Below, one piece after another: positions 18,174 to 54,369 of a stretch of DNA of 64,000 nt (position 1 is the stretch's first letter; every line of letters begins with the position of its first letter). The stretch is from positions 3,555 to 67,554 of the forward strand of contig DATKRE010000001.1 of assembly GCA_035532335.1 (NCBI GenBank), given 5' to 3'. A program made the position numbers and the translations under genes. The DNA comes from Xanthobacteraceae bacterium (GTDB taxonomy: Bacteria > Pseudomonadota > Alphaproteobacteria > Rhizobiales > Xanthobacteraceae). A model generated the notes under the pieces. It was not told where the DNA came from, did not search any database, and saw only the letters and a list, made by a program, of their open reading frames with translations.

Positions 18174-18198
18174 GGAACTTCCGGGTTTGCCTCGCGTT
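18174..18198 (+). promoter_or_regulatory. EcfG-type promoter motif GGAAC-N16-CGTT facing the poly-HAMP kinase
   Basis: The plus strand reads gccGGAACttccgggtttgcctcgCGTTtgggg. The motif is 224 nt upstream of the ATG at 18422. Confidence 0.5.
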
Positions 18199-21400: not shown

Positions 21401-24400
21401 GACGTTAAGGGCGAAATCCTGGAGCTGAAGAACACCATCAACACCATGGTGGACCAGCTCAATGGTTTCGCGTCGGAAGTTACCCGCGTTGCGCGTGAAG
21501 TCGGCACCGAGGGACTGCTCGGCGGCCAGGCGCAAGTGCCCGGCGTCGCCGGTACCTGGAAGGACTTGACCGATACGGTGAACGTCATGGCCGCCAACCT
21601 GACCGAGCAGGTGCGCGGTATTGTGAAGGTCGTGACTGCGGTCGCCAACGGCGACCTGAAGCAAAACCTTGCCGTGAAATCGAAAGGCGAGGTCGCGGCG
21701 CTTGCCGAAACCATCAACAGTATGACGGATACACTTGCGACCTTTGCCGACCAGGTGACCACGGTGGCGCGCGAGGTCGGCGTCGAAGGTCGTCTTGGCG
21801 GCCAGGCGAATGTGCCCGGCGCTGCCGGCACTTGGAAGGACTTGACCGGCAACGTCAATCTGCTTGCCGCCAATCTGACCACGCAGGTGCGCGCCATCGC
21901 CGAAGTGGCGACGGCGGTGACCAAGGGTGACCTGACGCGATCGATTCAAGTCGAAGCGCGCGGCGAAGTGGCCGAGCTCAAGGACAACATCAATACGATG
22001 ATCGACAACTTGCGGCTGACCACCGACCGCAACACCGAGCAGGATTGGCTGAAGACGAACCTCGCAAAATTCACCAACATGCTGCAAGGCCAGCGTGATC
22101 TGACGGCCGTCGGCCGCTTGCTGCTCTCCGAGCTGGCTCCTCTGGTCAACGCTCACCAGGGCGTTATCTATCAGATGGAAGGCGACGAGCGGCAGAGTAG
22201 TCTCAATCTGCTGTCGGCCTACGCCGACGACAATACGAACGGCCATCCGGATAGCTTCCGTCTTGGTCAAGGCCTGATTGGACAGTGCGCGCTCGACAAA
22301 CGGCGCATGTTGATTACCGACATGCCGGAAGGCGCTGTTCCCATTAGCTCGGCACTGTTCAGGGAATCGCCCCGCAACAATATCGTGTTGCCGGTCCTGT
22401 TCGAGAATCAGGTTAAGGCGGTGATCGAACTTGCGTCGATGCACGAATTCACGACGCTGCAAACCATATTCCTCGAGCAGCTTACGACCTCGATCGGTAT
22501 CGTGCTCAATTCGATCGAGGCGACAATGCAGACCGAGGGCCTGCTCAAGCAATCGCAGCAGTTAGCCGGCGAATTGCAGGCGCAACAGAAAGAATTGCAA
22601 AAAACCAACGAGCAACTTGAGCAGAAGGCGCAACAACTTGCCGAGCGCAACGTCGAAGTCGAGCGCAAGAATCAGGAAATCGAGCAGGCCCGCCGCGCGG
22701 TGGAGGAGAAGGCGACCGAACTGGCGCTAACCTCCAAGTACAAATCGGAATTCCTGGCCAACATGTCGCACGAGTTGCGCACGCCGCTCAACTCGATCCT
22801 GATCCTCGGCCAGCAGCTCACCGACAATCCCGAGGGCAATCTGAGCGGCAAGCAGGTCGAGTTCGCCAGAACGATCCATGGTGCCGGCACCGATTTGCTC
22901 AATCTCATCAGCGATATCTTGGATTTGTCTAAGATCGAGTCCGGTACCGTGACCGTCGATGCCGAGGAGGTCTTCTTCTCGAACTTGCTCGATATGATGG
23001 CGCGGCCGTTCCGTCATGAAGCGGAAACCCGTCAACTTTCATTCGAGGTTCATTCCGATCAAAATCTCGGGCGGACCATCACCACGGACGCCAAACGCTT
23101 GCAGCAGGTGCTCAAGAATCTGCTGTCGAATGCTTTCAAGTTTACTGCTCAGGGCGGCGTTCGCCTTAACGTCGCCGTATCGCTCGGCGGCTGGAGCGCG
23201 GAGCATCCGGTGCTCAGCCAGGCATCCGCCGTCGTGGCGTTCGAGGTGACGGATACCGGCATCGGTATTCCGCTCGAAAAACAGAAGATTATCTTCGAAG
23301 CATTCCAGCAAGCCGACGCGTCGACCAGCCGGAAATATGGCGGCACCGGTCTCGGTCTCGCCATCAGCCGCGAACTGGCGAGCCTGCTCGGAGGCGAGAT
23401 TCATCTGCGTAGCTCGCCCGGGTCCGGATCGACGTTCACGCTCTATCTGCCGATCAAATATGTCGGCCCGAGCGCGACAACGCACGTCGCCACGGCCGTG
23501 TCGATGCCCTCGCCACAATTGTTGGGACTTCACATTGCCGCCGACCGCACGATCGAGCCGATCCCCGATGACCGGATGGACATTCAGGCCGGCGACAGCA
23601 TTCTTCTCATCGTTGAGGACGATCCGCATTACGCCCGCATTTTGATCGACCTCGCGCGCGACAAGGGTTTCAAGGCGCTATTGGCGATGCGCGGCGATGA
23701 TGCACTCAATCTTGCCAAGCAGTATCAGCCAACTGCGGTTTCGCTCGATGTATTCCTGCCGGACATGCTTGGTTGGAATGTGCTCAGTCAGCTCAAGCAG
23801 AATCCCCTAACCCGGCATATTCCGGTGCAGATTGTGTCGCTCGACGAAGATCGCGAGCATGGTCTGGCGCGCGGTGCGTTTGCCTTCGTCAACAAACCGA
23901 CGACGCGCGAAGACATTGACGTGGCGCTGTCCCGTATCAAGGAATTTACCAAGCCACGTCGCAAGCGCCTGTTGATCGTCGAGGACAATTCCGTCGAGCG
24001 GATGAGCATCCACGCTTTGCTCGACCATGACGATATCGATATCGTGAACGCGGCCACGGGCGGCGAGGCATTGAGTACGCTGCACGACAAATCATGCGAT
24101 TGCGTGGTTCTCGACCTTCGTCTTCCAGATATGTCGGGCTTTGAGGTGCTGGAGCGCATGCGCGCGGATAGTTCGCTTGCCGACATTCCGGTCGTCGTAT
24201 TCACGGGCCGGGAATTGTCTGCCGCGGAAGATGCCCAGCTTCATACCATGGCGCGCAGCATCGTGGTGAAAGGGGTCGAATCGCCCGAGCGGTTGCTTAA
24301 CGAGACCGCGCTGTTCCTGCATCGCGTCATCACCGATTTGCCGGCCGAGAAACAGCATATGCTGGAACGGCTCAATAGCTCCGACGAGGATCTCGTCGGG

Positions 24401-24766
24401 CGTACCGTACTTCTGGTCGACGACGATCCGCGTAACATCTTTGCCCTGTCGAGCGCGCTGGAACGCCGTGGCATGAACGTGCTCACTGCGACGACGGGGG
24501 CCGAGGCGATTACGCTCATCGAGGAAACGCCGGCGCTCGCTATCGTGCTGATGGACATCATGATGCCGGAGATGGACGGCTATCAAACGATCGAGAAAAT
24601 CCGTCAAGACCAGGCCCATCGCCGCTTGCCGATCATTGCCTTGACCGCCAAGGCGATGAAGGGCGATCGCGAAAAATGCCTACAGGCCGGGGCATCGGAC
24701 TATCTCGCCAAGCCTGTTAACACCGAGCAACTCCTGTCCGCGCTGCGGATGTGGTTGCATCGCTAG
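18422..24766 (+). CDS. giant cytoplasmic hybrid sensor histidine kinase: poly-HAMP array, GAF, coiled coil, HisKA, HATPase, three receiver domains (2114 aa)
   Basis: No TM segment is visible. About 25 HAMP-like modules are present. A GAF-like region runs from about 22090 to 22520. The H-box is [15 protein letters not shown], with G-boxes (DTGIGI, GGTGLGL). Three REC domains carry the phospho-Asp contexts [18 protein letters not shown] and [15 protein letters not shown] lies 8 nt before the ATG. Confidence 0.9.
18521..18565 (+). repeat. three tandem 15-bp units (GTCCAAGGTTTGGAC-like) encoding [15 protein letters not shown]
   Basis: The units are gtccaaggtttggac, gttcaaggtttggac and gctcaaggtttggcg, read directly from the sequence. 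Confidence 0.8.
18983..22018 (+). repeat. 11 in-frame tandem copies of a 276-bp (92-aa) unit, each unit being two concatenated HAMP-like modules
   Basis: Each unit begins F(A/T)[11 protein letters not shown] and contains [20 protein letters not shown](R/K)KITVDV and NTMVDQL. I counted 11 units by hand. Copies differ mostly at synonymous sites. Confidence 0.9.
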
Positions 24767-24777
24767 CCGCGGCCGTC

Positions 24778-26631
24778 ATGACAGAAAAAGTCAACGTTCT
24801 GTTGGTCGACGATCAGCCTGACAAGCTGCTCGCTTACGAGGTGATCCTCCAGGACCTTGGAGAAAATCTCGTCAAAACATCATCTGCGCGAGATGCCTTG
24901 CAATTTCTCCTTAAGAACGACGTCGCCGTCGTCCTGGTCGACGTGTGTATGCCGGTGCTTGACGGTTTCCAGTTTGCCGCCATGCTCCGCGAGCATCCAC
25001 GGTTCCGGAAAACAGCGATCATTTTCATTTCGGCTATCCTTCTCACCGACGTAGATCGCCTGCGCGGTTATGAGATGGGAGCGGCCGATTATGTGCCGGT
25101 GCCGGTCGTTCCCGAAGTATTGCGTGCGAAGGTCAGGGTATTTGTCGAGCTGTTCCGGAAGACGCGCGAGCTTGAAGAATTAAACTCTCAACTCGAACGG
25201 CACGTGACGGAGCGCACGGTGGAACTTGAATCTTCGAACCAGCGGCTGCTTCAGAGCGAGCAGGGCCGCAGCCTTGCGCTGGCGGCCGGTCAGATGGGCT
25301 CGTGGGACTGGGACCTGGTCAATGACGACTGGAAGTGGGACGAAGGTCAATGCCGCATCTTCGGAGTCGATCACGCCACATTCAGACCGAGCCCGCAAAA
25401 TGTCGGCACCATGGTCGAGCCGGAGGACATGCGCCGGCTCACGGAGATGGTGTCCGATTTCGGGCGTGGCGACAGCCAAGGCTACCAGACTGAATTCCGC
25501 GTCGTGCGTCTGGACGGCACGGTGCGGTGGTGCTTCGGCACGGCGGCTCCGACTGTCGACGCCTCCGGCAAGGTGGTGCGTATTTCCGGCGTCACCATCG
25601 ACATCACCGATCGCAAGGAGACCGAAGAGCGCCAAGCGTTTCTGTCACGCGAGGTCGATCATCGCGCCCGCAACGCGCTCGCCGTTATCCAATCGATCAT
25701 AAGGCTTACTCGCGCAAAAAGCGTTGACGACTACGTGCTGGCGATCGAGGGGCGCATCAAAGCGATGGCGCGCGCGCACACGCTGCTTTCCGACTCTCGC
25801 TGGCACGGCGCCGATCTCGGGGCGCTCGTCGCGGAAGAATTGGCGCCGTACCGGGCCGGTGACAAAATCGAGATCTGCGGGCCTGATATCTCGCTGCAAC
25901 CAGCTACCGCTCAAGGTCTCGCGCTTGCGCTGCATGAGCTCGCCACCAACGCGGCAAAACATGGCGCGCTGTCGTTGGCCACCGGCAAAGTGAGGCTCGA
26001 TTGGCGGTTACAGGCGGACACTCTGAACTTGCATTGGGTGGAGAATGGCGGCCCGCACATTGAGTCGCCTTCCGCGAGCAGCTTCGGCTTGAAAGTCATC
26101 GTTGCCAGCGTGGAACAACAACTTGGTGGCAAAGTAGAGTTTGACTGGGGTTCCAAAGGTCTGCAATGCGTGTTGTCGATACCGCGTAGCGTATTGTTGA
26201 AAACACGGGTCGCAGGCGAGCGAGTCAACGGTGAAGCAAATGGCGTCGCGGCCGGTTTGAATCCGGCAGGCAAGCCGCGCGTGCTCCTGGTCGAGGACGA
26301 AGCGTTGGTCGCCATGATGATACAGGAGAGCCTTACCGAATTCGGCTTCCACGTCATCGGTCCGGTCTGCACCGTATCCGAGGCGGAGGCGGTTGCCCGG
26401 GACGATCGACCCGATGTCGCCGTCCTTGATATCAATCTCGGCGACGGGATGATCTATTCGGTCGCCGAGATACTGGCGGTGCGCGGAGTGCCATTCGTCT
26501 TCGTGACCGGTTACGATGCCGAGAGCGTCGACAGCCGGTTCAGCGAAATCCCGATCCTGCAGAAGCCCATCGACAGGGAAATATTGCAGAGAATCTTCGC
26601 TCAGCACGCGGAGCGCTATGCCGCTCATTGA
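24778..26631 (+). CDS. REC - PAS - HWE/HisKA_2 histidine kinase - REC hybrid protein
   Basis: The N-terminal REC has VLLVDDQPD...VLVDVCMPVLDG and a PAS region (SWDWDLVNDDWKWDEGQCRIFGV). The HisKA_2 H-box is REVDHRARNALAVIQS and the HWE signature is LHWVENGGP. The C-terminal REC has VLLVEDEALV...VLDINLGDG. The gene starts 12 nt after the upstream stop. Confidence 0.9.
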   Translation: MTEKVNVLLVDDQPDKLLAYEVILQDLGENLVKTSSARDALQFLLKNDVAVVLVDVCMPVLDGFQFAAMLREHPRFRKTAIIFISAILLTDVDRLRGYEMGAADYVPVPVVPEVLRAKVRVFVELFRKTRELEELNSQLERHVTERTVELESSNQRLLQSEQGRSLALAAGQMGSWDWDLVNDDWKWDEGQCRIFGVDHATFRPSPQNVGTMVEPEDMRRLTEMVSDFGRGDSQGYQTEFRVVRLDGTVRWCFGTAAPTVDASGKVVRISGVTIDITDRKETEERQAFLSREVDHRARNALAVIQSIIRLTRAKSVDDYVLAIEGRIKAMARAHTLLSDSRWHGADLGALVAEELAPYRAGDKIEICGPDISLQPATAQGLALALHELATNAAKHGALSLATGKVRLDWRLQADTLNLHWVENGGPHIESPSASSFGLKVIVASVEQQLGGKVEFDWGSKGLQCVLSIPRSVLLKTRVAGERVNGEANGVAAGLNPAGKPRVLLVEDEALVAMMIQESLTEFGFHVIGPVCTVSEAEAVARDDRPDVAVLDINLGDGMIYSVAEILAVRGVPFVFVTGYDAESVDSRFSEIPILQKPIDREILQRIFAQHAERYAAH

Positions 26632-37385: not shown

Positions 37386-37658
37386 GTCGATCCTCCCCGC
37401 CGGCTTTGGCTTGTTGCGCTTCTGCGTCTGCTTTGAGGGTAATGGTAGGCACTTTTGCAACCGCCGAAAAGTCCGAGGGTGAGGGCTCGTTTTCACCCGG
37501 ACGCCTATTGCGGTGCAAACTTTAAGCCCCGCGAGAATGAAATCTGTCCGTTCCAGAAGGCCTGCAATAAGTCGGGCGCTGCTCATTGTTCGGGCTTAGA
37601 AAGTTCCATCGTCCGCCCGCAGGCATTTATTGTGGTGGTTTGCACCGCTCAGGCTAAG

Positions 37659-38540
37659 ATGATGCCTCGCGCCGCGATCGAAGGCGCAAACGTCCGCAGC
37701 ATCGCAGGTCCCGTGCACGCCCCCGCGACCAATCCAAAACCGCTGGTTCCGCTCAATCGGAGCCTCGTGGTCACCGCCGTTCTTGCTGGCCTGATTGTGG
37801 CCGCCACGTTCTGGCTGGTCGGACGCAACCAAAGCGATGCCGCCTGGGTGGTGCGCTCGCTGGCAGTGCGCGACGAACTGACGAATGTTGTCAATCAGGT
37901 CGAGGCGGCCGAAACCGGCCAGCGGGGCTATCTGCTGACTGGCCGCGACAGCTATCCCGGGTATTCGATCCATTTTTCACCACCAAGCCCGCCGGTAAGG
38001 GTACCGGTCTCGGCCTCAGCCAGGCCTACGGTTTCGTCAAGCAGTCCAGCGGCCATATCAAGATTTATTCCGAGCCTGGCGCCGGCACCACGGTGAAGAT
38101 TTATCTGCCGCGACTCGTGGCTGACGCGAAGGGATTACTGACGCGCACGGCTTCCGAACCGATGCGGACCGGCGACCGCAGCGAAATTATCATCGTGGTC
38201 GAGGACGACGCTGATGCGTCGACTGACGACGGAAACACTGCACGAGCTCGGTTACACGGTATTCGATAGCGAAAGCGCCACCGGCGCCTTGGAAATTCTC
38301 GACCGCGTGGCCGACGTGAAGTTGCTGTTCACCGACGTTGTCATGCCCGATATCAACGGCAAGAAACTCGCCGATGAGGCGCTGCGTCGGCGGCCTGATC
38401 TAAAAGTACTGTTCACCACCGGATATACCGCCAACGCAGTCGTGCATGGCAGTGTGCTGGGATCCGGGAGTTCATTTGATCGGCAAGCCGTTCACACTCG
38501 ACCACTCGCCGCAAAAGTACGCGCGGTTCTTGACGAGTAA
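37659..38540 (+). pseudogene. remnant of a CHASE3 hybrid histidine kinase: N-terminal TM plus start of CHASE3 joined out of frame to the last HATPase motifs and a frameshifted receiver domain
   Basis: Frame 0 gives [17 protein letters not shown]...[20 protein letters not shown]. From about 37958 another frame reads [51 protein letters not shown]...[11 protein letters not shown]. The REC domain (38214..38540) carries further frameshifts near 38210 and around 38450-38500. Confidence 0.7.
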
Positions 38541-44002: not shown

Positions 44003-44043
44003 GCTGCGCCCCGCGTGGCAGCCGTGGGATTGTAAGTTTTACT

Positions 44044-44517
44044 TCAGTGGAATTCGGGAATGGAACTTCCGGTGCGGCGGGGAGTGTCGGGCGGCTGCTC
44101 GTTCAGTACCAGCCAATAGAGTCCCAGTTGGACCACCGCCTGCGCGAATTCGTTGAAATCGACCGGCTTGCGGACGTAGCTGTTGGCGCCGAGGCTATAA
44201 CCCTGCAAGCGGTCTTTATCCTCCACCGAGGTCGTCAGGATGACCACGGGCAGCAAACGGGTGCGCTCGTCGCTGCGGATGCGACGCAGCACCTCATGAC
44301 CGTCGATTTTCGGCAGCTTCAGATCCAGCAATATAAGCTGCGGCAGCTCATTGCGGTTGCCGTCGGCGCCGGTGCCAAGAAGATAGTCGATGGCCTGGAC
44401 CCCGTCGCGTGCCACGGCCACACGATTGCCGATGTTGGCCTTCTTGAGCGCCCGCAGCGTCAAGGCTTCGTCTTTCTGATTGTCCTCCACGAGAAGGATG
44501 GCCGGCTCTTGCGTCAT
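44044..44517 (-). CDS. single-domain response regulator (CheY-like), last gene of the Che-like cluster
   Basis: REC domain with ILLVEDNQKDE...LILLDLKLPKIDG...YVRKP. ATGA overlap with the upstream kinase gene. Confidence 0.9.
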   Translation of the reverse strand: MTQEPAILLVEDNQKDEALTLRALKKANIGNRVAVARDGVQAIDYLLGTGADGNRNELPQLILLDLKLPKIDGHEVLRRIRSDERTRLLPVVILTTSVEDKDRLQGYSLGANSYVRKPVDFNEFAQAVVQLGLYWLVLNEQPPDTPRRTGSSIPEFH

Positions 44518-46553
44518 TGCGTCCCCCAGATTAATGCCGCGCTTGCGGGTCCGATTGCATGCGTAGCGGGCTCGGCCGCCAAGCGCTGATCGTCCCCAAG
44601 CGTAAAGAAGAAAGTGGCGCCGCTGTCGACGGCGGCTTCCGCCCAGATGCGGCCGCCGTGCCGGCGGATCACCCGCCGAACTGTCGCCAGTCCGATGCCG
44701 GTACCTTCGAACTCGCTCTTCGTGTGTAGCCGCTGGAACATGCCGAATAGCTTGCCGGCATAAGCCATGTCGAAGCCTGCGCCATTGTCGCGAACGAAGA
44801 AGGTGCGGCCGTCATTATCGGCCATGCCGACTTCGATATGGGCTCGCTTCCGGTGTCCGGTATATTTCCAGGCGTTGCCAAGCAGGTTCTCGAACGCGAT
44901 GGTCAATAGCCGGGCATCGCCTTCGGCGGTCAGGCCATCCGCTACGGTGAAGTCAACGTCGCGGCCCGGCGTGGCGCGCGCAAGTTCCGCGGAGACCTTG
45001 GATGCGATTTCGCTTAAGTTGACGTTGGCGCGCTCAAATTCGACGCGAGTGACCTGCGCCAGCGCCAGCATGTCGTCGATCAGTTGCGACATTTGCTGGG
45101 CGGATTCCCGCACGTAAGCCAGGTACTGCTTGCCGTCGTCGTCGAGTTTGTCCGCGTAGTCCTCCAGGAGCGCCAGTCCAAACCCGTCGATGCTGCGCAA
45201 CGGTGCGCGCAAATCATGGGCGACGGAATGGCTGAAAGACTCAAGTTCTTCATTCTTGGCCTCGAGTTCGGCGACGAGCTTGGCGCGTTCTTCCGCCATC
45301 TCGCGCGCCGTGCGCGCCTCGATTGCCTCCAGTTCGGCGCGCAAAAGCTGTTCGCGGATACGGCGGGTCTCGTCCTCGAATTGCTTGCGCCGGATCTGGG
45401 CCAGCACGCGCGCGCGCACCAGATCGAAATCGCTTGATTTGGCGATGTAATCGTCAGCGCCGGCGGTAAGTCCTCGAATCATCGCCGCGCGATCCTCGAC
45501 CGCGGTCAACATGAGCACCGGAATGTCGCGGATGTCGGGTGCCAGTTTGATGCGCCGGCAGGTTTCCCGGCCGCCCATGCCAGGCATCATCAGATCGAGC
45601 AGAATGCAATCGACCGGCTGGACCGCAAGCAATTGCAACGCTTCCTCGCCTGAGCGTGCCAACACCAGCTCGTAGCCATCCGAGCGCAATGCATCGGCAA
45701 GCTGCTGCAGGTAGGTTTCGCTGTCATCGACCGCGAGAATCTTTTTCGGCGCCAGCAGACTTGTGGCGCCGTGTGCGTCCATCTGAGCTTCCAACCGGCC
45801 GCCGGCGCTTCGCAACACGGCTTTCAGCCGGGCGATGACGAGCGCGACATCTTCGTCTTTACGAACGAATGCATCGGCCCCCGCATCAAGCGCGTGCATC
45901 TCGGCGCCGCGATCTTCCGACGCGGTGAGAAGAAGGCAGGGCAGGCCGCGCAACGCCGCGTCCAGCCTGATCCTTCGGATGACGGTGGCGCCGTCGATGC
46001 CCGGTAATTGACCGTCAACGACGATGGCGGTGGGTCGCTGATCGGAGGCGAGCCGCAATCCGTCTTCGCCGTTGTCGCTCACGATCACGCGGTAGGAGGC
46101 CGCCTCGAGCGCCGCTTTCAAAGCCTCGCGAAACGTCAGGCTGTCGTCGATGACCAGCACGCTCTCCACGCCAGCGGGTGCGGCCGACACATGCAGCCGG
46201 GCGAGTTCGCGCGCGCGCGCGACAATGTAGTTGGGATCGTAGGGCTTGCCGACATACTCATCCGCTCCGGTGGAGAGGCCGCGCACGCGGTCGCGCACTT
46301 CCGCTTCAGTCGACAACAGCATGACGGCAGTATCGTTGGCGGACGGCATCGCGCGGATATCCCTGAGCAGTTCAATTCCGTCGCCATCCGGCAACAGAAT
46401 ATCGAGGATCACCAGCGCGAAATGCTGCTCGGCGAGCTTGCGCCGCGCTTCCTCCAAAGTCGCGCAAGCCACGGCTGGAAGCGCCGCCGCGTCGAGGATC
46501 TCGGTCAAATTCATGCGGACGGTCAGGCTGTCATCGACCACGAGAACGCTCAT
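44514..46553 (-). CDS. hybrid histidine kinase with three N-terminal receiver domains, coiled coil, HisKA and HATPase
   Basis: REC1 has VLVVDDSLTV...ILDILLPDGDG. REC2 has VLVIDDSLTF...VVDGQLPGIDG. REC3 has ILAVDDSETY...LLDLMMPGMGG. The H-box is FSHSVAHDLRAPLRS and the G-box is GTGIGLATV. Confidence 0.9.
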   Translation of the reverse strand: MSVLVVDDSLTVRMNLTEILDAAALPAVACATLEEARRKLAEQHFALVILDILLPDGDGIELLRDIRAMPSANDTAVMLLSTEAEVRDRVRGLSTGADEYVGKPYDPNYIVARARELARLHVSAAPAGVESVLVIDDSLTFREALKAALEAASYRVIVSDNGEDGLRLASDQRPTAIVVDGQLPGIDGATVIRRIRLDAALRGLPCLLLTASEDRGAEMHALDAGADAFVRKDEDVALVIARLKAVLRSAGGRLEAQMDAHGATSLLAPKKILAVDDSETYLQQLADALRSDGYELVLARSGEEALQLLAVQPVDCILLDLMMPGMGGRETCRRIKLAPDIRDIPVLMLTAVEDRAAMIRGLTAGADDYIAKSSDFDLVRARVLAQIRRKQFEDETRRIREQLLRAELEAIEARTAREMAEERAKLVAELEAKNEELESFSHSVAHDLRAPLRSIDGFGLALLEDYADKLDDDGKQYLAYVRESAQQMSQLIDDMLALAQVTRVEFERANVNLSEIASKVSAELARATPGRDVDFTVADGLTAEGDARLLTIAFENLLGNAWKYTGHRKRAHIEVGMADNDGRTFFVRDNGAGFDMAYAGKLFGMFQRLHTKSEFEGTGIGLATVRRVIRRHGGRIWAEAAVDSGATFFFTLGDDQRLAAEPATHAIGPASAALIWGTQ

Positions 46554-47629
46554 GCGCGCATCTCCATCGGGGCGTATTGCAGAGTACCCAGACGCGTTCC
46601 GATCTCACCAAGGCGCAAAACCTCCGTGGCCGCGCCAAGGTTGACCGCCTCGCGCGGCATGCCATAGACGACGGAGGTTGTCTCGTCTTGCGCGATGGTA
46701 AATCCGCCGGCTTGGCGGATCTTCAGGAGTCCGAGCGCGCCGTCACGGCCCATTCCGGTGAGTAAGCAGGCAATCGCCTGGGCGCCGTATTCGGCGGCGA
46801 CCGACTCGAACAACACGTCGACAGAAGGCCGGCAAGAATGCCGTTCTGCGTCTTCGGTCAGCCGCAGACGGTGATCGCGGACGACCAAATGGTGAGTCCC
46901 CGGTGCCACAACGACCTGACCGGCGGCTTCGGCAATCGGGATTCCATCGCGTGCATGGCGCACCGGACGATTGGTCTGGCCGTCGAGCCAATCGGCAAAT
47001 GCCGCCCCAAACGGTTCGCTGATATGCAGCACCAGCAAAATCGGCAGACGAAACTCCGCCGGTAGCGCGCGCAAAACCTGAAGGACCGCACTTGGTCCGC
47101 CGGTCGAGGCGCCGATGGCGACCATTCGATAGGCGGGTTGCGCGAGCGCTGCCGCGCGCGAGGGTGTTTTGGAGGTTGGTTCTTGCCCGGTCAGTGCCGC
47201 CAAACGGGCGCGCGGATGAGTGATGACGCGGATCCTCGCGATCCGCTTCACCGCCGTAATGAATTGCTGCTCCCACGTGCCTCCGGTATCGCGGCCGGTG
47301 GGCTTTTCCAGCACGTCGACCGCGCCGGCGGCGAGCGCCTCGTAAATTTTGAATAATTCGCCACGATTGATCGAAGCCGACACGATGAGGATCGGAGTCG
47401 GAAAATGCGCCATGATGTATTCGGTGGCGGCAAGGCCGCTCATGAGCGGCATCACCATGTCCATGGTGATCACGTCCGGCCGCGTCCTTGTGCACAACTC
47501 GATCGCGCGCTTGCCGTCCTCGGCCTCGCCGACGACCTCGAAATCCGGGTGATTGCGGAGAATCTCGACAAGGCTGCCGCGAACTGTTGCGGAATCATCG
47601 GCGACGAGGACGCGAAGTTTTTTCGTCAC
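46550..47629 (-). CDS. cheB: chemotaxis response regulator protein-glutamate methylesterase
   Basis: REC (RVLVADDSATVRG...VITMDMVMPLMSG) plus a CheB catalytic domain (VAIGASTGGP). The GTG at 47629 overlaps the cheA stop (GTGA). Confidence 0.9.
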   Translation of the reverse strand: MTKKLRVLVADDSATVRGSLVEILRNHPDFEVVGEAEDGKRAIELCTRTRPDVITMDMVMPLMSGLAATEYIMAHFPTPILIVSASINRGELFKIYEALAAGAVDVLEKPTGRDTGGTWEQQFITAVKRIARIRVITHPRARLAALTGQEPTSKTPSRAAALAQPAYRMVAIGASTGGPSAVLQVLRALPAEFRLPILLVLHISEPFGAAFADWLDGQTNRPVRHARDGIPIAEAAGQVVVAPGTHHLVVRDHRLRLTEDAERHSCRPSVDVLFESVAAEYGAQAIACLLTGMGRDGALGLLKIRQAGGFTIAQDETTSVVYGMPREAVNLGAATEVLRLGEIGTRLGTLQYAPMEMRA

Positions 47630-49737
47630 GATGAAGCCGCCACCAATGGCTGGATCATGGTCAACAATTCGGCTTGATTGAACTCGCTCTTGACGATGTA
47701 GCCGTGCGCGCCGACTTCGCGCCCGCGCTGCCGATCTTGCGGCGCCGCGCGTGATGTAACCAGGATTGCCGGTGTGTCGCGCAATCGAGGATGCGAGCGC
47801 ATACGTTCGACGAACGTGAAACCGTCGATGCCCGGCATTTCTACGTCGCAAAGGATCAGGGAGAACCGCTTGCGTTGTGCGAGCTCCAGACCTTCTTCAC
47901 CGGAGCTGGCGACATCGACCTCGTATCCCGCCGATTCGAGGATGCTCTTCTCCAGCATCCGTGTGGTCAACGAGTCGTCGACGACCAGCACCGGCGGTTT
48001 TTCAGAAGCAACGTTCGTTTCGATGGCTTGCGTCGAATAGGCTGTCGAAACCAGACTTTCCGGATCGAGAACGATCTGCGGATTGCCGCCGCCGTCGAGC
48101 GCGGCCCCGGTGGCGATTGGGCTGATCCCAAACCGCTCGGGCAACGGCCGTACGACCACGCGTGCCGTGCCGATCAAACTCTCGACCCCGATCGCCGCGA
48201 GGCGATCCGCGGCTGCGACGATAATTGCCGTCCAAGCCCGGGTTGCCGGCCAAGGCGCATGAGCGAGCGCTGCCGACAGCGGAATGAAGGGAATAGCCCG
48301 TTGCTCATAGAGAATCGATCCGCCGTTCGGACTGTTGGCAATTTCGCCGGGAGCCAAGCGCACAATGCGGCGCACGCAATCGAGCGGGATCGCCACCGTC
48401 TCGCCGCTGTTGGCCGGTGCGACCAACAGCGCGACAACGGAGGTGACCGAACCGGGGATCAGCAGAGCGAACGAAGTGCCCTGGCCGGGGTCGATGTGAA
48501 TGGAAACTTCGCCACCGAGCCGTTGCATCGTCTCGCGGACGACGTCGAGCCCCACGCCGCGGCCGGAGACGCTGGTGACCGCCGTCGACGTGCTTACGCC
48601 GCCTCGCAGCAAGAGAGCGACCAGATCATTCGATTCAAGTTCGGCTGCCGCCGGATCGAGAAGCTTGCGCTCCACCGCCGCCTTGCGCACCGCGACCCGA
48701 TCAATGCCGCGTCCGTCATCGCGGCAGGTAAAAAGAATCTTTCGCCCGCGGCGTGAAACATTGACGGTGACGGCTCCGACTGCCGGCTTGCCGGCGGCAA
48801 GCCGCTCGCTCTCCATCTCAATTCCATGCGCCACCGCGTTGCGCACGGTCTGAATAAGCGCAGCCTGAATCGCCCCGAGCACCTCGGCGTCGAGCCGGAC
48901 ATCGCCGCCTGAACTTTCAAAATTTACTTCCTTGCCGAGTGCGCGCGCTGCATCGCGCGCGGTACGCTTAAGAGCCATCAGCACCGCATCGACCGGGATA
49001 AGGCGCAAACCCTCCGCGGCGTCGCGAAACTGGCGCAATTCGCGGTCCATTTGGGCGGTGGTGGTATCCAGCTCCCGCGCGAAGCCCGCAATGCCGCGAC
49101 GCAACTCGTCCGCGATCGCTCCAGGTGAAGCCGCGCCGCGACTGCTTTCCACAGGTGCTTGACGAGCGGTTTGCGCGCGGAGCAAGTCGGCCAAATGGCT
49201 CAAGTGCTCCATAGTTTCGGCGCCGTTCCGCAAAGCGTTGAGTTTGGCGTGCGTCTCCGCGATGCCGTCGAGTACGGCGTCGACCTCGGCCATCTCGGCA
49301 CGGATCATTTTCGGCGTATCGCGCGCGAAATCGGATGCAGCGACCTTCGTACCGTAGGGCTCCGCACTCGCCGAATGAGCTTCACCGGCATGCTTGTTCC
49401 GATCAGGCGAGCCATCGACCGTATCGGGCACTAGCGTAACGATTAGACTGCTGATTTCGTCAAGATGCGCCAGGATGACGTCGATGTTGTCGCGCCCGAT
49501 ACCGCTCGTGCTTTCGCGAAAGGGGGCGAGCGCATCCTCGATCGCGTGCGCTCGTTCGGCGATTGTGGACTGGCGCACCACGCGCGCTGCGCCCTTGAGC
49601 GTATGCGCAAGACGAAGTAGACGCTGCACCGCTCCGGCGCTGCCGCCATTCTTCTCGAGTTCGAGGAGTCCTTGCGCGAATTGATCGAGGAGGTTGCGCG
49701 CCTCGGGCCGAAAGTATCGATACGGATCTTGCGCCAT
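47626..49737 (-). CDS. cheA: CheA-type histidine kinase with C-terminal receiver domain (CheA-REC hybrid)
   Basis: It has an HPt domain (RLAHTLKGAARVV), an HATPase domain (GRGVGLDVV), a CheW-like domain and a C-terminal REC (VLVVDDSLTTR...LCDVEMPGIDG). Confidence 0.9.
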   Translation of the reverse strand: MAQDPYRYFRPEARNLLDQFAQGLLELEKNGGSAGAVQRLLRLAHTLKGAARVVRQSTIAERAHAIEDALAPFRESTSGIGRDNIDVILAHLDEISSLIVTLVPDTVDGSPDRNKHAGEAHSASAEPYGTKVAASDFARDTPKMIRAEMAEVDAVLDGIAETHAKLNALRNGAETMEHLSHLADLLRAQTARQAPVESSRGAASPGAIADELRRGIAGFARELDTTTAQMDRELRQFRDAAEGLRLIPVDAVLMALKRTARDAARALGKEVNFESSGGDVRLDAEVLGAIQAALIQTVRNAVAHGIEMESERLAAGKPAVGAVTVNVSRRGRKILFTCRDDGRGIDRVAVRKAAVERKLLDPAAAELESNDLVALLLRGGVSTSTAVTSVSGRGVGLDVVRETMQRLGGEVSIHIDPGQGTSFALLIPGSVTSVVALLVAPANSGETVAIPLDCVRRIVRLAPGEIANSPNGGSILYEQRAIPFIPLSAALAHAPWPATRAWTAIIVAAADRLAAIGVESLIGTARVVVRPLPERFGISPIATGAALDGGGNPQIVLDPESLVSTAYSTQAIETNVASEKPPVLVVDDSLTTRMLEKSILESAGYEVDVASSGEEGLELAQRKRFSLILCDVEMPGIDGFTFVERMRSHPRLRDTPAILVTSRAAPQDRQRGREVGAHGYIVKSEFNQAELLTMIQPLVAASS

Positions 49738-49763
49738 GTGCTGCCTCGCCGGTGGTGCCTGCC

Positions 49764-51242
49764 TTAGGCCGCCATGTGCGGCGTAATGATGCGCAGGAGG
49801 TCTTTTGACAGCGACGCCATCTGCGAGACGGTCTGTAGGGTCTGCCCGGCACTGGTTTCGGTTTCCATCGAAGCCTGCGTCACATTGGCGACCGCGACGT
49901 TGACCTGCTCCACGGCGGTCGATTGCTGCTTGGTAGACAGCTCGATCTCGCGTGCCGCGTCCGTGGTGGTGGAGACCAAACTGACAATCTGCCTGAACGC
50001 CAAGGCCAGATCGCCGAACTGCCGCGAGCCGGCATCGACTGCTTTCGAGCCGGTCTCAGTCGCCATCACCGTGGTGTTCACCGCACTCCTGACGTCCTCG
50101 ATCAGCGCTCGCACCTCCTTGGTTGAGCCGCCGACCCGATCGGCAAGATTGCGAATTTCCTTGGCGACGACTGCGAACCTTTTGCCGGCTTCGCCGGCGC
50201 CCGCCGCTTCGATGGTCGCATTGATCGCGAGGATGTTGGTCTGTTCCGCAAGCTCGGAAACAATGTCGATCACCGCTCCGATTTCCTGCGATTTTTTTCC
50301 GAGTTCCAGCATGTGCGAAACGATCTGATCGACTTGCCCGCGAATACTGGAAATCGACTCGTGCGTCTGGTCGACCGTGCCGTGGCCGCTGCGGGCGGCG
50401 TTCGCGGTTTCTTCGACATTGTGGGCGTCGCGCTGCGCGCTTTCGGCGATTTGGCGCGATGTTGCCAGCAGCTCGCTGATCGTGGTGGAGATTTCAGCCA
50501 TCGCGGTGGCCTGCTCCTTGGCGCCGGATGCTTGCTGATTGGCGGCCGCTTGTAATTCGGTCGATGAGCTGCGGACCAGTCCGACGGCCGAACCGATCTG
50601 CTGCGAGAGTGATGACGCTATCAGCCAGCCGATGATGCAGACGGCGAGCGTGCCGCTAAGTCCGCCCCACAGGATGATATTCTGGGTCAAATCGGCGCTC
50701 GCGCGAGCCTCCTCGGTCCGCTGCTTGAGCACGTCGCGAGCCTCTTGGTCGGCCGCGGCTACGGCGGCGCGTATCTGATCCATATGCGTCTTGCCGGTAT
50801 TGGTCGTGATAAGCTTCGCGGCGGCATCAAATCCCTGCGCGCGGCGAAGATCGACGGCGGCCTTGAGCTCGTTCAGCTTGGTCTCGATGATCGGCGTAAT
50901 ACTCGCCAGACGCCGTTGCTGCTCGGCGCTGTCCGCCGTGAGCTTGCGCAAATCCGCCAGCGTTGCCGGCAAAGCGTTCAGTGCCGATTTGTAGGGATCC
51001 AGGTAACTTTCGTCGCCGGTGATGACGTAGCCGCGCTGTCCGGTCTCGGCGTCCTTCATCACCGAGAGCACGTCGGCAAGCTCCAGTCGAACCTGATGGC
51101 TATGCTCCACCAGCGCGTCGTTTTCGATCAACAAATTCGTGTTGCGATAGGAAACGACCGCTATCAGCAACAGCGTGAGCGCGGACAGGCCAAAGCCGAC
51201 GATCAAGCGGCGGCCGACGGTCCAATTGTTGAACAGACTCAT
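49764..51242 (-). CDS. methyl-accepting chemotaxis protein with periplasmic CHASE3 domain
   Basis: Two TM helices are present. The CHASE3 signature is [40 protein letters not shown]. The MCP signalling hairpin is [35 protein letters not shown]. Confidence 0.9.
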
Positions 51243-51787
51243 GCCTTTTCACTCCTCTCATGGATTGCATGCGGCGATTTATGACTGCCGAGCGATTCGA
51301 TCACGGAAGCCAGATGCAGCACCGGCCTGACGATACCGGCGTGGTGCACAAACTCCGGCGCGAAGCCGCGAGCCCGGCCAGACGATTGTTGCGGCACGAT
51401 CGAGGCGCTTAATACCCGCAAATGACCTTCGAATGTGTCGAAAGCGAACGCGACCGACGTGGCCGCGGCGGTGACCAGCCAGCGGAACGCATGCGCCGCT
51501 GGAAGACCGAGGACGATTGGCAAGCTGTGCACCGGGACGATCGCGCCGCGAAATCCGGCAATTCCAAGAAGTGACGTATCGTCTGCGGGTACGCGGGTAA
51601 TCTTCCGGTCGACGAACAGACCGGAAATATCTGAAAAGCGTATCGCATAGGCTTCCGCGCCGGCGCGAACGGCAAGGAGATCCTGGCTGGCGGCGGCATC
51701 GCGGCGTAGCGGAGCGGCGTATGCCGCATCGAACGCCGCTCGAAGTTTTGCTGCTTGGCCGGTGAGGCCGGCGGGCGCGTCTGTCAC
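51239..51787 (-). CDS. cheW: CheW-like coupling protein
   Basis: CheW domain ([12 protein letters not shown]...[17 protein letters not shown]). The GTG at 51787 gives a GTGA overlap with the cheR stop, but the ORF-track start at 51823 is also possible. Confidence 0.8.
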
Positions 51788-53286
51788 AGTCGGCCCCCGC
51801 ACTCTGTGACTGCGGATTGACAAAGCGCGATCAGCGCTTCGCGCGAAAAGCCGCCGCCGAACAGAAGGACCCGCGATACATCTTCGCGCTTAAGGAGAAG
51901 AAGCGCTTGCGCCAGCTCGCTGCGGGCGACCTCGCGGTTGCCGGCCTGGCGGGCAAGCAAACCGCTATGAAGCCTCGGCATGGCGAAAGCGGGATCCAGA
52001 TGCGCGGCAAGCCGGTCATGTTCCACGGCACGCTCGCGCTCGCCGGCGTGTTCGCGGCAAAGGGCCAAGACGTAGTGAGCGCCGGCGTTCAGACCGTCGA
52101 TCAGAAGAAGTTGTTGGCACACCTCTTCGGCAGCGAGGGATTGACCGCTCTGGGCCAACAGCACCGCTTTGACCAGTAGAACGTCCGGGTCGTCGCGGCT
52201 TTCTGGCGGCCCGCTGCGAACGTGTGCGAGCGCTTCGTCGAAGCGTTCCGCGCGCAAGAGATCGAGCGCCGGCGCCAGTTGCCACGTAGCGTGGCGACGT
52301 GGCGAAAGTTTCTTGGCGCTGGCCGGAACCAGGTCCGTAATGCGCTCGCTCGCCTGCCGGATGGCGTCAACCCAGGCCGTGTTCGCCAACGCGGGCAACG
52401 GGGCCGGTGCCACGGCGCGCGAAGCCACGACATCAGGCCGCGACGATTTGGGCCGAAGCTCGTCTTTTCGGCGGTAATAGAAGGCGTCGTGTGCATGATG
52501 CAGCTCAAAGTCATCGGAAACTCCGCGCAACGTTTCGGCGTGACCGAGAAACAGGTAACCGCCCGGGGCCAGCGACACAGCGATCCGCGCGATCGCCGCG
52601 CGCATCCGATCGGGTGCAAAATACATGAGAACGTTACGGCAGAAGATCACATCGTAGATCGCCGGCTGCCAAAGTACGAGATCGTCGCTCGCGAGATTTG
52701 CCTGCTTGAAATGAACGGCGCGGCGTAATGGCTCATCGAGAGCGAGTTCGCGCCCCTCGCAGCGAAACCACTTTTCTCTGACCGGCAGCGGCGTCTCGCG
52801 CAGCGCCCAGGCCGAGTAGCGCGCCTTTTCGGCCTTTTGCAAAACCGCGCGGTTCAAGTCGACCGCCTGGATCATCACGTTCCACGATGGATCGGTGACC
52901 GTCTCGCGCACTACAATCGCGATTGAGTAGGCCTCCTCGCCGGAAGCGCAACCGGCCGACATCAGATTGAGCGTTCGGCTGGCCGCGCGCGCCCGCATGC
53001 GGTCCGGCAAAGCGAACTCGGCCAGCGCCCGGAATTGATCGTTGTGGCGAAAGAAATAAGTCTCGGCAACGGTAAGCTCTTCGGCCAGGGCCAAAGATTC
53101 GGCGTGCGGCATCTCGTGAACAAGCTTTGCCAGATAGTCCGCGCTCGAGCAGGCCAGTCTCCCGATCCGCCGCCGCAAAACTTCTTCCAGAAACGAGAGT
53201 TTGGAGTCGTCGAAATGTAAGCCGACCTGCTCGACGATGGCCGACCGGAAACGCTCCAGGTCCTGTCGGGTCACCGAAGGGTTCAT
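51784..53286 (-). CDS. cheR: CheR-type methyltransferase with C-terminal TPR-like extension
   Basis: CheR motifs are present (ETYFFRH, SAGCASGEEAYSIA, IFCRNVLMYF). They are followed by a helical repeat region of about 200 aa, as in WspC-type CheR. Confidence 0.9.
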   Translation of the reverse strand: MNPSVTRQDLERFRSAIVEQVGLHFDDSKLSFLEEVLRRRIGRLACSSADYLAKLVHEMPHAESLALAEELTVAETYFFRHNDQFRALAEFALPDRMRARAASRTLNLMSAGCASGEEAYSIAIVVRETVTDPSWNVMIQAVDLNRAVLQKAEKARYSAWALRETPLPVREKWFRCEGRELALDEPLRRAVHFKQANLASDDLVLWQPAIYDVIFCRNVLMYFAPDRMRAAIARIAVSLAPGGYLFLGHAETLRGVSDDFELHHAHDAFYYRRKDELRPKSSRPDVVASRAVAPAPLPALANTAWVDAIRQASERITDLVPASAKKLSPRRHATWQLAPALDLLRAERFDEALAHVRSGPPESRDDPDVLLVKAVLLAQSGQSLAAEEVCQQLLLIDGLNAGAHYVLALCREHAGERERAVEHDRLAAHLDPAFAMPRLHSGLLARQAGNREVARSELAQALLLLKREDVSRVLLFGGGFSREALIALCQSAVTECGGRL

Positions 53287-53804
53287 AGCGCTGCCTTCTC
53301 GGCGTCAAGCCGATTGAGAACGGCCTCTGGAACGATCCGGGTGGTGTGCAAAAAGACAATCAAACCGTTATCAAGTCTGCCGATAGCCGCGATTGCGTCT
53401 GGCGCCGCGTCGCGCACGAGCGGGGGTAGTTCGTCCAGCGTTTCGCCGGCAACGGTGCTGACGCCGAGTACAGAATCGACCGCGAGCGCCACCACTCGAG
53501 CCGCGCGCACCGTGACCACGCGCGTGGTTGTGGTTGCACGATCGCCGACGATCAGCCCGAGATCGACAACCGGAACGGGCATGCCACGAATAATGCTGAG
53601 GCCGCGAACATAGTGTGGGGCGCCGGCGATCTGCTCGACCGGCAGCGGTCGCATGATTTCGATCACGTGCCCGATCGGCAAAGCGCACCGCAGATGACCG
53701 GCGCGGCAAAGCAGCCAGCACGATCGCTCTGCGTGGTCGAGGTCCGTCGCAGGCGCCGCCGATGGCTCGCCGGTGAACCGCGCCGTAATCGCTTCAGGCA
53801 TCAT
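53283..53804 (-). CDS. cheW: CheW-like coupling protein
   Basis: CheW domain (ALPIGHVIEIMRPLPVEQIAGAPHYVRGLSIIRGMPVPVVDL). Confidence 0.85.
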   Translation of the reverse strand: MMPEAITARFTGEPSAAPATDLDHAERSCWLLCRAGHLRCALPIGHVIEIMRPLPVEQIAGAPHYVRGLSIIRGMPVPVVDLGLIVGDRATTTTRVVTVRAARVVALAVDSVLGVSTVAGETLDELPPLVRDAAPDAIAAIGRLDNGLIVFLHTTRIVPEAVLNRLDAEKAAL

Positions 53805-54207
53805 GTGCGTTGAAGGTCTCGACGGTGTGGGCGATCGTGTCGCGCGTAAAAGGCTTGTTGAGCGGGGTAGCGAGATTTATTCCGTGCCGCACGCCGATGC
53901 GTTGCACCGCCTGAAGCAATGACGGCCTACCGCCGCTCATCAGTTGCACCGTACCGCCATACCGGCGTTCGCCGAGGCCGCGCAGGACATCGATTGCATC
54001 GGACCGTAACAATGCGACGTCGAGAAAAATGACGGCAGGATGGACGGCATCGAGCGAAGCCAACGCATCCTTTGCCATGTCAAAGTCCGCGACCCGCATG
54101 CCAAGCTGTTTCAACGTTGCGGCAATGAACCGCCGCAACTCGGCGTCGTCGTCGATGACGAGCGCGAGGTTCGGATCAATTGCGGCATGAACGGCGGTCG
54201 CTGGCAT
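53794..54207 (-). CDS. receiver-domain protein (first gene of the Che-like cluster)
   Basis: A 137-aa ORF with LALVIDDDAELRR...VIFLDVAL...KPF. It overlaps the following cheW by 11 nt. Confidence 0.75.
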   Translation of the reverse strand: MPATAVHAAIDPNLALVIDDDAELRRFIAATLKQLGMRVADFDMAKDALASLDAVHPAVIFLDVALLRSDAIDVLRGLGERRYGGTVQLMSGGRPSLLQAVQRIGVRHGINLATPLNKPFTRDTIAHTVETFNAHDA

Positions 54208-54369
54208 AACGCTCCTGGCGTTCGGCGTTTAAGGCCGCACATCGGCGCACAAGCTTGTGGAGCTTCTATCGAATGAGTGTTAAAGCTTGTCAGTAAAGCC
54301 AAATACGTACGTAGAGTTACGTGCGCTGCGAGTCGCGCGGTACAAAAAGCGGACACAACGGAGAAAAAT

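Follow-up and report, generated by a model that had tools for sequence, protein, structure and literature searches.

The subject of this analysis is a nine-gene operon (g1 to g9, all in one orientation, 54207-44044 on the minus strand) in a 64,000-nucleotide (nt) window, the whole stretch of Xanthobacteraceae DNA that was analysed. We consider it probable that the operon encodes a chemosensory pathway of the non-motility class known as alternative cellular function (ACF), ending in a phosphorelay and not in a motor or a cyclic di-GMP (c-di-GMP) enzyme. Genes g2 to g8 form a fixed seven-gene cassette, a discrete unit that is rare in each lineage yet widespread.

Many soil bacteria have chemosensory pathways of the non-motility kind. 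To our knowledge, only a handful have been studied (Wsp, Che3, Frz/Dif and Flm). A literature search found no bench study of the sub-type described here, which combines a CHASE3 receptor with a triple-receiver kinase; the cassette is an unstudied cross-phylum sub-type within a known, catalogued kind of system. The sub-type is abundant in soil metagenomes, and one worked-out representative would explain many genomes and would reveal how the signal of a chemoreceptor array enters an ordinary two-component network. For annotation, the operon is to be recorded as an accessory non-chemotaxis signalling operon and not tallied as a motility system.

Gene content and class of the operon

The open reading frame (ORF) listing and a Pfam profile search of the nine proteins gave the order REC, CheW, CheR-TPR, CheW, CHASE3-MCP (methyl-accepting chemotaxis protein), CheA-REC, CheB, (REC)3-HisKA-HATPase, REC, in agreement with an earlier note made from the letters of this DNA. 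All nine genes lie on the minus strand. The stand-alone divergent receiver g1 (53794-54207, 137 amino acids (aa), Response_reg E=1.2e-10) is followed by the CheW coupling protein g2 (53283-53804, 173 aa, CheW E=2.4e-20), the CheR protein g3 with its C-terminal TPR region (51784-53286, 500 aa, CheR_N/CheR E=1.2e-43), a second CheW, g4 (51239-51787, 182 aa from the GTG at 51787, CheW E=1.5e-10), and the CHASE3 chemoreceptor g5 (49764-51242, 492 aa, CHASE3 E=3e-42, MCPsignal E=3e-37). The second half consists of the CheA-REC hybrid kinase g6 (47626-49737, 703 aa, with Hpt, HATPase_c, CheW and Response_reg matches), the REC-CheB methylesterase g7 (46550-47629, 359 aa from the GTG at 47629, CheB_methylest E=2.5e-60 plus REC), the (REC)3-HisKA-HATPase kinase g8 (44514-46553, 679 aa, with three REC, HisKA and HATPase_c matches) and the single-domain receiver g9 (44044-44517, 157 aa). 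An NCBIfam scan returned generic CheA, CheB and CheR matches, and only a CheB subfamily exceeded its cut-off. Such a gene set far exceeds chance expectation: its seven-gene core was present in 22 loci unrelated to each other.

The genes are tightly packed, and the overlap of nearly every junction reported in the earlier note was borne out. With the most plausible starts for g4 (GTG 51787, overlapping the g3 stop as GTGA) and g7 (GTG 47629), a 4-nt ATGA/GTGA overlap was present at six of the eight junctions (g2/g3, g3/g4, g4/g5, g6/g7, g7/g8 and g8/g9). The remaining two are an overlap of 8-11 nt (g1/g2) and a gap of 26 nt (g5/g6). Independent gene calls on metagenome contigs carrying an identical kinase gave the same lengths for CheB (359 aa), the kinase (679 aa) and the terminal REC (157 aa).

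The encoded output is of the two-component kind proposed in the earlier note: a histidine kinase gated by receivers, together with a single-domain receiver. At E<=0.01, Pfam detected among the nine proteins neither a DNA-binding domain nor any enzymatic output domain such as GGDEF or EAL, again as the note had stated. Its count of six REC domains rises to seven once the CheB receiver is included; the acceptor Asp and the conserved Lys are intact in each of them.

The Pfam matches of g3 to TPR_19 and TPR_16, in the C-terminal 230 residues, were sub-threshold. An AlphaFold (AF2) model built with 15 orthologues in the alignment (predicted local distance difference test score, pLDDT, 83) was therefore compared by Foldseek. 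Residues 1-273 adopt a CheR fold in the model, matching Salmonella CheR (1af7, TMt 0.83), and a disordered linker separates this fold from a helical-repeat domain at residues 338-495, which matches MamA and consensus TPR proteins (E ~1e-5) as well as the TPR region of OGT. The model confirmed the predicted CheR-TPR architecture of g3.

The receptor g5 has two transmembrane (TM) segments flanking a periplasmic CHASE3 domain, and 282 cytoplasmic residues, with no Pfam match to a HAMP domain. Aligned with P. putida PcaY (6s18), it spans 266 residues against 266, the net length being equal with a compensating pair of 4-residue gaps, and its span also equals that of a model of P. aeruginosa CtpM (263 versus 263). 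The signalling part exceeds models of the E. coli 36H receptors Tar and Tsr by 28 residues, or four heptads, and two 7-residue inserts lie in its C-arm relative to Tsr. Judged by length only, g5 thus appears to be a 40H receptor, like the WspA homologue and the majority of Pseudomonas receptors. The 17 g5 orthologues are 486-498 aa long with conserved motifs; the candidate methylation pair QQ is present in 17/17, and EQ in all except three from Chloroflexota. A C-terminal pentapeptide is absent from g5.

In g6, Pfam matches cover Hpt (7-96), HATPase (292-428), a single CheW-like P5 domain (445-564) and a C-terminal receiver (583-696), and no match to a P2 domain was found. The candidate phospho-acceptor of the Hpt domain is His45, within HTLKG.

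The ACF class was described by Wuichet and Zhulin (2010), as reported in PMC3447774 and PMC10782961. As outlined there, clusters of this class likewise contain a CheR-TPR, a CheA-REC, two CheW proteins and a regulator fused to a kinase; the class so outlined is a broad catch-all, whereas the present cassette is one discrete and tightly conserved sub-type with a HAMP-less CHASE3 receptor and a triple-receiver kinase. A CheR-TPR and a multidomain regulator joining REC to an output domain are traits of ACF clusters (PMC3447774), and these are represented by g3, from the AF2/Foldseek comparison, and by the REC-kinase g8. A third ACF trait is the g6 CheA, with a C-terminal receiver and without P2 in Pfam, although CheA-REC fusions occur also in the F3, F5 and Tfp classes (PMC10782961). 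The 40H length of g5, which it has in common with WspA-type receptors, agrees with this class as well. By these traits the operon fits the ACF class, in keeping with the Che3/Wsp-like, non-flagellar character claimed in the earlier note.

The earlier note held that flagellar or pilus genes next to orthologous clusters would refute its reading. No such genes adjoin the cluster in the window flanks, nor in 11 of 12 related neighbourhoods checked. The exception is locus L013 ('delta proteobacterium'), in which a gene for a T2SSE/MshEN (type II/IV secretion) ATPase (L013:932-2767) lies just upstream of the cassette. The genome from which the window is taken also contains a second che cluster (C151:49100-54500) with CheA, CheW, a CheY-like REC, CheB and CheR. 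The CheA of this cluster has a duplicated CheW domain within a single 874-aa frame, a feature of 99% of F5 CheAs (PMC10782961). FliM is encoded on a third contig (C193:37970-38545), and the genome has seven MCP genes. The C151 cluster is presumably the actual flagellar chemotaxis system.

The terminal kinase g8 contains no TM segment, PAS or GAF domain (sensor-less), and a long coiled coil links its third receiver to the H-box, with His446 as the H-box His. In 22/22 orthologues, the acceptor Asp and the Lys of every one of the three receivers are invariant, as is the H-box His. None of the three receivers is a decayed spacer. The HisKA-HATPase core (residues ~427-652) is also found, at 46-63% identity, in kinases behind other sensors, namely PAS, CHASE8, CHASE-GAF-PAS, dCache-PAS and HAMP. 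In g8, the triple receiver stands where these kinases have their sensor. Directly behind the homologous core, a g9-like receiver (51-71% identity) was encoded in 10/10 non-Che loci inspected. No close paralogue of g9 or of the g8 core was found in the window's own genome, where g9 is the sole receiver of its type. Because the two are adjacent in all ten of these loci and both are unique in the genome, the g8 core and g9 form a co-inherited, portable cognate pair.

Directly following g8 by an ATGA overlap, g9 gave its best PDB sequence match to 5ic5 (RtBRR; E=1.5e-40, residues 7-146). The next matches were 5brj (AtBRR), RcpA, Rcp1 and RcpB (1k68, 1i3c, 1k66), down to E=1e-21. The likeness to Rcp/BRR proteins extends over the full length, including the C-terminal tail (LG-YW-VLNE-PP); g9 is a single-domain regulator of the bacteriophytochrome-associated (Rcp/BRR) type and not a generic CheY. 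Rcp/BRR regulators are likewise encoded directly behind a HisKA-type kinase. Their partner kinases are photosensory with PAS-GAF-PHY domains, whereas the partner of g9 carries receivers and no PAS, GAF or PHY.

The most divergent of the receivers is g1 (Pfam 42 bits), which keeps the acidic pair, the acceptor Asp and the Lys. Its best PDB match was 3eqz, with LMSGG aligned to LISGY on the beta-4 strand. It is confined to the nearest relatives, L020/G002 and G016, is absent from 21/23 cassettes, and is a lineage-specific addition to the cassette.

Distribution of the cassette

A kinase query against species-representative genomes retrieved 283 relatives, 24 of them full length. In 22 of the 24 full-length kinase loci, CheW, CheR, CheW, MCP, CheA and CheB were encoded upstream in the same order. 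As in the window, the first cassette gene of the related loci was the g2 CheW, and g8 was the last gene of the seven-gene core in every case. Protein identity was 45-66% for the larger cassette proteins. The hosts belong to six phyla: Myxococcota, Chloroflexota, Acidobacteriota, Planctomycetota, Candidatus Wallbacteria, and the Alpha-, Beta- and Gammaproteobacteria. The Planctomycetota locus is on a contig cut within CheB.

The earlier note had proposed checking synteny across Hyphomicrobiales; none was seen. The cassette is instead a rare, patchy accessory: its kinase was present in 3/37 genomes of the window's own genus, in none of the sampled genomes of 24 other families of the order, and in 3/400 genomes of an even sample of the class Alphaproteobacteria. 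Metagenome protein clusters contained >4,700 similar kinase sequences at E<=1e-100, all under generic names; the closest hit with a named source was a Xanthobacteraceae MAG protein, at 74% identity.

A tree of concatenated CheR, CheB and kinase sequences was star-like, with the phyla intermixed. A betaproteobacterium grouped with Chloroflexota (support 100), and the cassette of the window was placed with a Stellaceae metagenome-assembled genome (MAG), beside delta/Myxococcota sequences and apart from two other alphaproteobacteria. This distribution points to horizontal movement of the cassette, and the cluster in the window's own genome is an accessory that was probably acquired horizontally.

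No conserved neighbouring output gene was found, the flanks varying between EAL-GGDEF, REC-LuxR, PAS-GAF kinase and metabolic genes. Beside the cassette are a divergent EAL-GGDEF protein in Oxalicibacterium (L015:1261-3489), a divergent REC-LuxR regulator in a gammaproteobacterium (L009:1460-2173) and a REC-GAF-PAS kinase in Chloroflexota (L021:808-3729). Together with the ATPase of L013, these neighbours may be lineage-specific outputs. A hybrid kinase was encoded behind the cassette in L002 (11706-13286), L008, L011 (11506-13446), L014 (11949-13889), L016 (13097-15076), L022 (12372-14426) and L092 (12445-13998). A cassette with a REC-(PAS)-HisKA-HATPase-REC gene amounts to a three-kinase chain; the version in the window is without that gene.

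Proposed signal flow and alternatives

In the pathway that we propose, the CHASE3 receptor would sense a periplasmic or envelope cue and, with the two CheW proteins, control CheA-REC, and it would be reset by methylation through CheR-TPR and CheB. Phosphorylated CheA would have several acceptors: its own receiver, in the role of a sink; CheB; and at least one of the three g8 receivers, whose phosphorylation would switch the HisKA/HATPase core by way of the coiled-coil linker. The kinase g8 would then phosphorylate or dephosphorylate its co-translated partner g9, and g9 would act by protein-protein contact on a target encoded elsewhere. The additional receiver g1, specific to the lineage, would most likely be a phosphate sink or a side branch.

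By analogy, the closest functional model for this pathway is Che3 of R. centenum. We infer the flow of phosphate from CheA to g8, and its regulatory sign, from that system. R. centenum che3 has the same gene complement as the present operon, a likeness of architecture and not a claim of orthology. The cheY3 gene is reportedly the first of the R. centenum cluster, as g1 is here. The published pathway, which controls the timing of cyst formation, comprises CheY3, CheW3a/b, CheR3, MCP3, CheA3-REC, CheB3 and CheS3 (PMC3868531, PMC4436063). Phosphorylated CheA3 phosphorylates REC1 of CheS3 and switches CheS3 off, CheY3 is phosphorylated by CheS3 only and not by CheA3, and CheA3 has a receiver that serves as a phosphate sink (PMC3868531). 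Unlike Che3, the present operon has two stand-alone receivers, and the one coupled to the kinase is of the phytochrome-regulator type.

Several points weigh against the proposed pathway. The likeness to CheS3 and CheY3 drawn in the earlier note is apt for the pathway as published, but does not extend to the kinase: CheS3 is a REC-REC-PAS-HWE_HK protein in which REC1 alone can be phosphorylated (PMC3868531), whereas g8 is a HisKA kinase with no PAS and three live receivers. The ACF assignment rests on traits, not on MiST class models. The receiver g9 follows the kinase in ~9/20 informative cassettes; it is absent from about half and is not a universal output. Many cassettes, with or without g9, run on into a REC-(PAS)-HisKA-HATPase-REC hybrid kinase. 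The target of CheA could be g1 and not g8. Finally, the sequencing runs that hold the region were all of soil or rhizosphere DNA, and none were of RNA.

In a rather unlikely alternative, CheA phosphorylates g1 and/or g9 directly, with g8 serving as a parallel input, a phosphatase or a sink that tunes their phosphorylation. Both g1 and g9 have intact acceptor sites and flank the operon, and g1 holds the place reported for cheY3. Multi-receiver proteins often act as sinks. A sink role is documented for the CheA3 receiver (PMC3868531), and M. xanthus Che3 modulates CrdS/CrdA in a comparable way, according to citations in PMC3868531 and PMC3147164. However, in the only system of such a layout to have been tested, CheY3 received no phosphate from CheA3 (PMC3868531), and g8 is always present in the cassettes, whereas g1 is missing from most and g9 from about half. 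Moreover, the travelling of g9 with the g8 core in non-Che loci argues for g8, not CheA, as the phosphate donor of g9, as in the proposed phosphorelay.

That the pathway instead feeds the PhyR-NepR-EcfG general stress response, with g9 or g1 as a phosphorelay protein and the downstream DUF892 gene as part of the response, seems improbable to us. The idea draws on an EcfG-type motif 72 nt ahead of DUF892, the gene directly after g9, with no terminator in between, on HWE and poly-HAMP kinases in the same window, and on R. centenum Che3, which governs a dormancy/stress programme via an HWE kinase (PMC3868531). The adjacency is incidental, because DUF892 and its motif are present also in congeners without the operon, and neither G002/L020 nor the other phyla have DUF892 beside the cassette. 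Five motif matches per 64 kb are not significant, since at least five occurred in 11/100 shuffles, and g8 is of the HisKA and not the HWE/HisKA_2 family. Least probable of all, and in our judgement highly improbable, is a motility system of the flagellar F-type or type IV pilus type with extra kinases. Such a system could account for the CheA-REC, found also in F3, F5 and Tfp classes, and for the ATPase gene upstream of the cassette in L013; it is at odds with the CheR-TPR and REC-kinase hallmarks of ACF clusters (PMC3447774), the scarcity of adjoining flagellar or pilus genes, the separate che cluster with its F5-type double-CheW CheA, and the presence of the cassette in Chloroflexota, Myxococcota and Acidobacteriota MAGs.

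Within the preferred reading, a more speculative extension, which we regard as possible but doubtful, is that the seven-gene core is a portable signal-processing cassette that moves between phyla and connects to the network of each host, and in which the three intact receivers, not being redundant, form a multi-site phosphate integrator. If so, the integrator could give a threshold or memory-like response to CheA, or could combine CheA with other host kinases. No such layer of processing has been described for Che3 or WspH, both of which depend on a single live receiver. The interest of the operon would rise if the three receivers acted as an integration device of their own kind, or if the g9 target were identified.

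Kinase outputs of such clusters are already known. A 2012 survey listed REC-HisKA-HATPase proteins as outputs of CheR-TPR clusters (PMC3447774), and two have been studied, CheS3 and WspH (PMC8552884); the novelty of the operon is therefore below that implied by the earlier note. In Burkholderia cenocepacia, the receiver-histidine kinase WspH is encoded by the terminal gene in place of WspR, and its output is independent of c-di-GMP and thought to reach a separate response regulator (PMC8552884). The Burkholderia wsp 'H-system' (WspA-F plus WspH) is thus an experimental precedent for a Wsp-type core ending in a receiver-kinase, as here. The present system differs in its CHASE3 receptor without HAMP, its three-receiver kinase and its cognate receiver inside the operon. 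WspH is said to have one receiver, and the H-system to occur only in Burkholderia-type betaproteobacteria. In Pseudomonas Wsp the terminal protein is the REC-GGDEF protein WspR, in contrast to the nine proteins here, all without GGDEF. As for the Wsp core order proposed in the earlier note, CheW-CheR-CheW...CheA-REC-CheB holds, but the MCP is encoded by the fifth gene, between the second CheW and CheA, whereas it is encoded by the first gene in wsp (PMC8552884).

A further comparison, made by published description, is with M. xanthus Che6 (MXAN_6947-6952), which encodes CheW6a, CheR6-TPR, CheW6b, Mcp6 (CHASE3), CheA6-REC and CheB6 (PMC3945109), with the same order as g2-g7 and the same CHASE3 sensor type. 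Mcp6 is 547 aa long with a HAMP domain, versus 492 aa without HAMP for g5 and 486-498 aa for its orthologues. No CheY or kinase is listed for Che6, which is little characterised, with mild defects in S motility and fruiting bodies in combined cheA mutants (PMC3945109). The operon is set apart from these systems by the combination of a HAMP-less CHASE3 receptor of 40H length, a HisKA kinase with three live receivers and a phytochrome-type receiver.

Genomic setting and regulatory DNA

The window is derived from an uncultured soil MAG of 260 contigs. Upstream of the operon is a divergent aromatic-CoA (aminobenzoyl-CoA-type) pathway, and downstream are DUF892, a small membrane protein and a three-subunit operon of the gluconate-dehydrogenase type. 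Comparison with congeners showed that the nine genes are carried in a presence/absence block of 10.2 kb (44003-54243). In the same-genus genomes G015 and G019 the site is empty, with a gap of ~185 bp and ~150 bp, respectively, between the DUF892 and monooxygenase genes; homology of G015 to the window ends at 44003 and restarts at 54243. In G016 the operon is at the same site with 80-85% nucleotide identity throughout, and the G002 operon also adjoins the monooxygenase gene.

The spacer of G015 (L089 4561-4744, 184 bp) contains a 31-codon ORF with a start like that of g1 and an end (APEFKTF*) like that of g9 (IPEFH*). It could be the scar of a deletion that fused the two, but the alignments to the g1 start and the g9 end scored only slightly better than shuffled sequences (z = 3.0 and 1.7).

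The EcfG-type motif GGAAC-N16-CGTT lies ahead of the DUF892 gene (43906-43403), at 44002-43978, and a strong terminator lies behind the gene, at 43383-43357; other terminator matches in 43.3-54.5 kb were at chance level. No terminator was found between g9 and DUF892, so transcription of the che operon may continue into DUF892. The gene and its motif, being present at the empty site of the congeners too, predate the che block or are independent of it.

A scan of 43.3-54.5 kb gave no sigma-70 promoter, and no EcfG motif was found upstream of g1. Only ~36 nt of block-specific DNA precede g1, so the promoter is probably in the intergenic DNA that the che operon has in common with the divergent monooxygenase gene. 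This region (54249-54313) contains the perfect palindrome ACAAGCTTGT at 54249-54258, which is kept in the che-less G015, the half-related AAGCTTGT at ~54283, and TACGTACGTA at 54304-54313, which is unchanged in G016 and has diverged in both G002 and G015. These sequences could be operators of the MarR-regulated aromatic-CoA cluster.

Candidates for a REC-(PAS)-HisKA-HATPase-REC partner were considered in the window's own genome and rejected. Only 37-44% matches were present, on C166 and C193, unlinked to the cluster. A remnant of a CHASE3 sensor kinase lies at 37455-38212, outside the 10.2-kb block, with the first 40 CHASE3 positions in a 213-aa ORF. Over 88 aa, its HATPase fragment (~37952-38212) shares 56% identity with the hybrid kinase behind the L092 cassette; this remnant at ~38 kb was likewise rejected as the partner, being decayed and outside the block.

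Two further kinases are encoded elsewhere in the window. A 2114-aa hybrid kinase (18422-24766) contains ~11 HAMP/HAMP_2 repeats, GAF, HisKA, HATPase and three receivers, and an EcfG-type motif lies ahead of it at 18174-18198. Its end is overlapped by the gene for a REC-PAS-HWE_HK kinase (24751-26631) with two receiver matches, which is of the same kinase family as CheS3 (HWE plus PAS) and is unlinked to the che operon.

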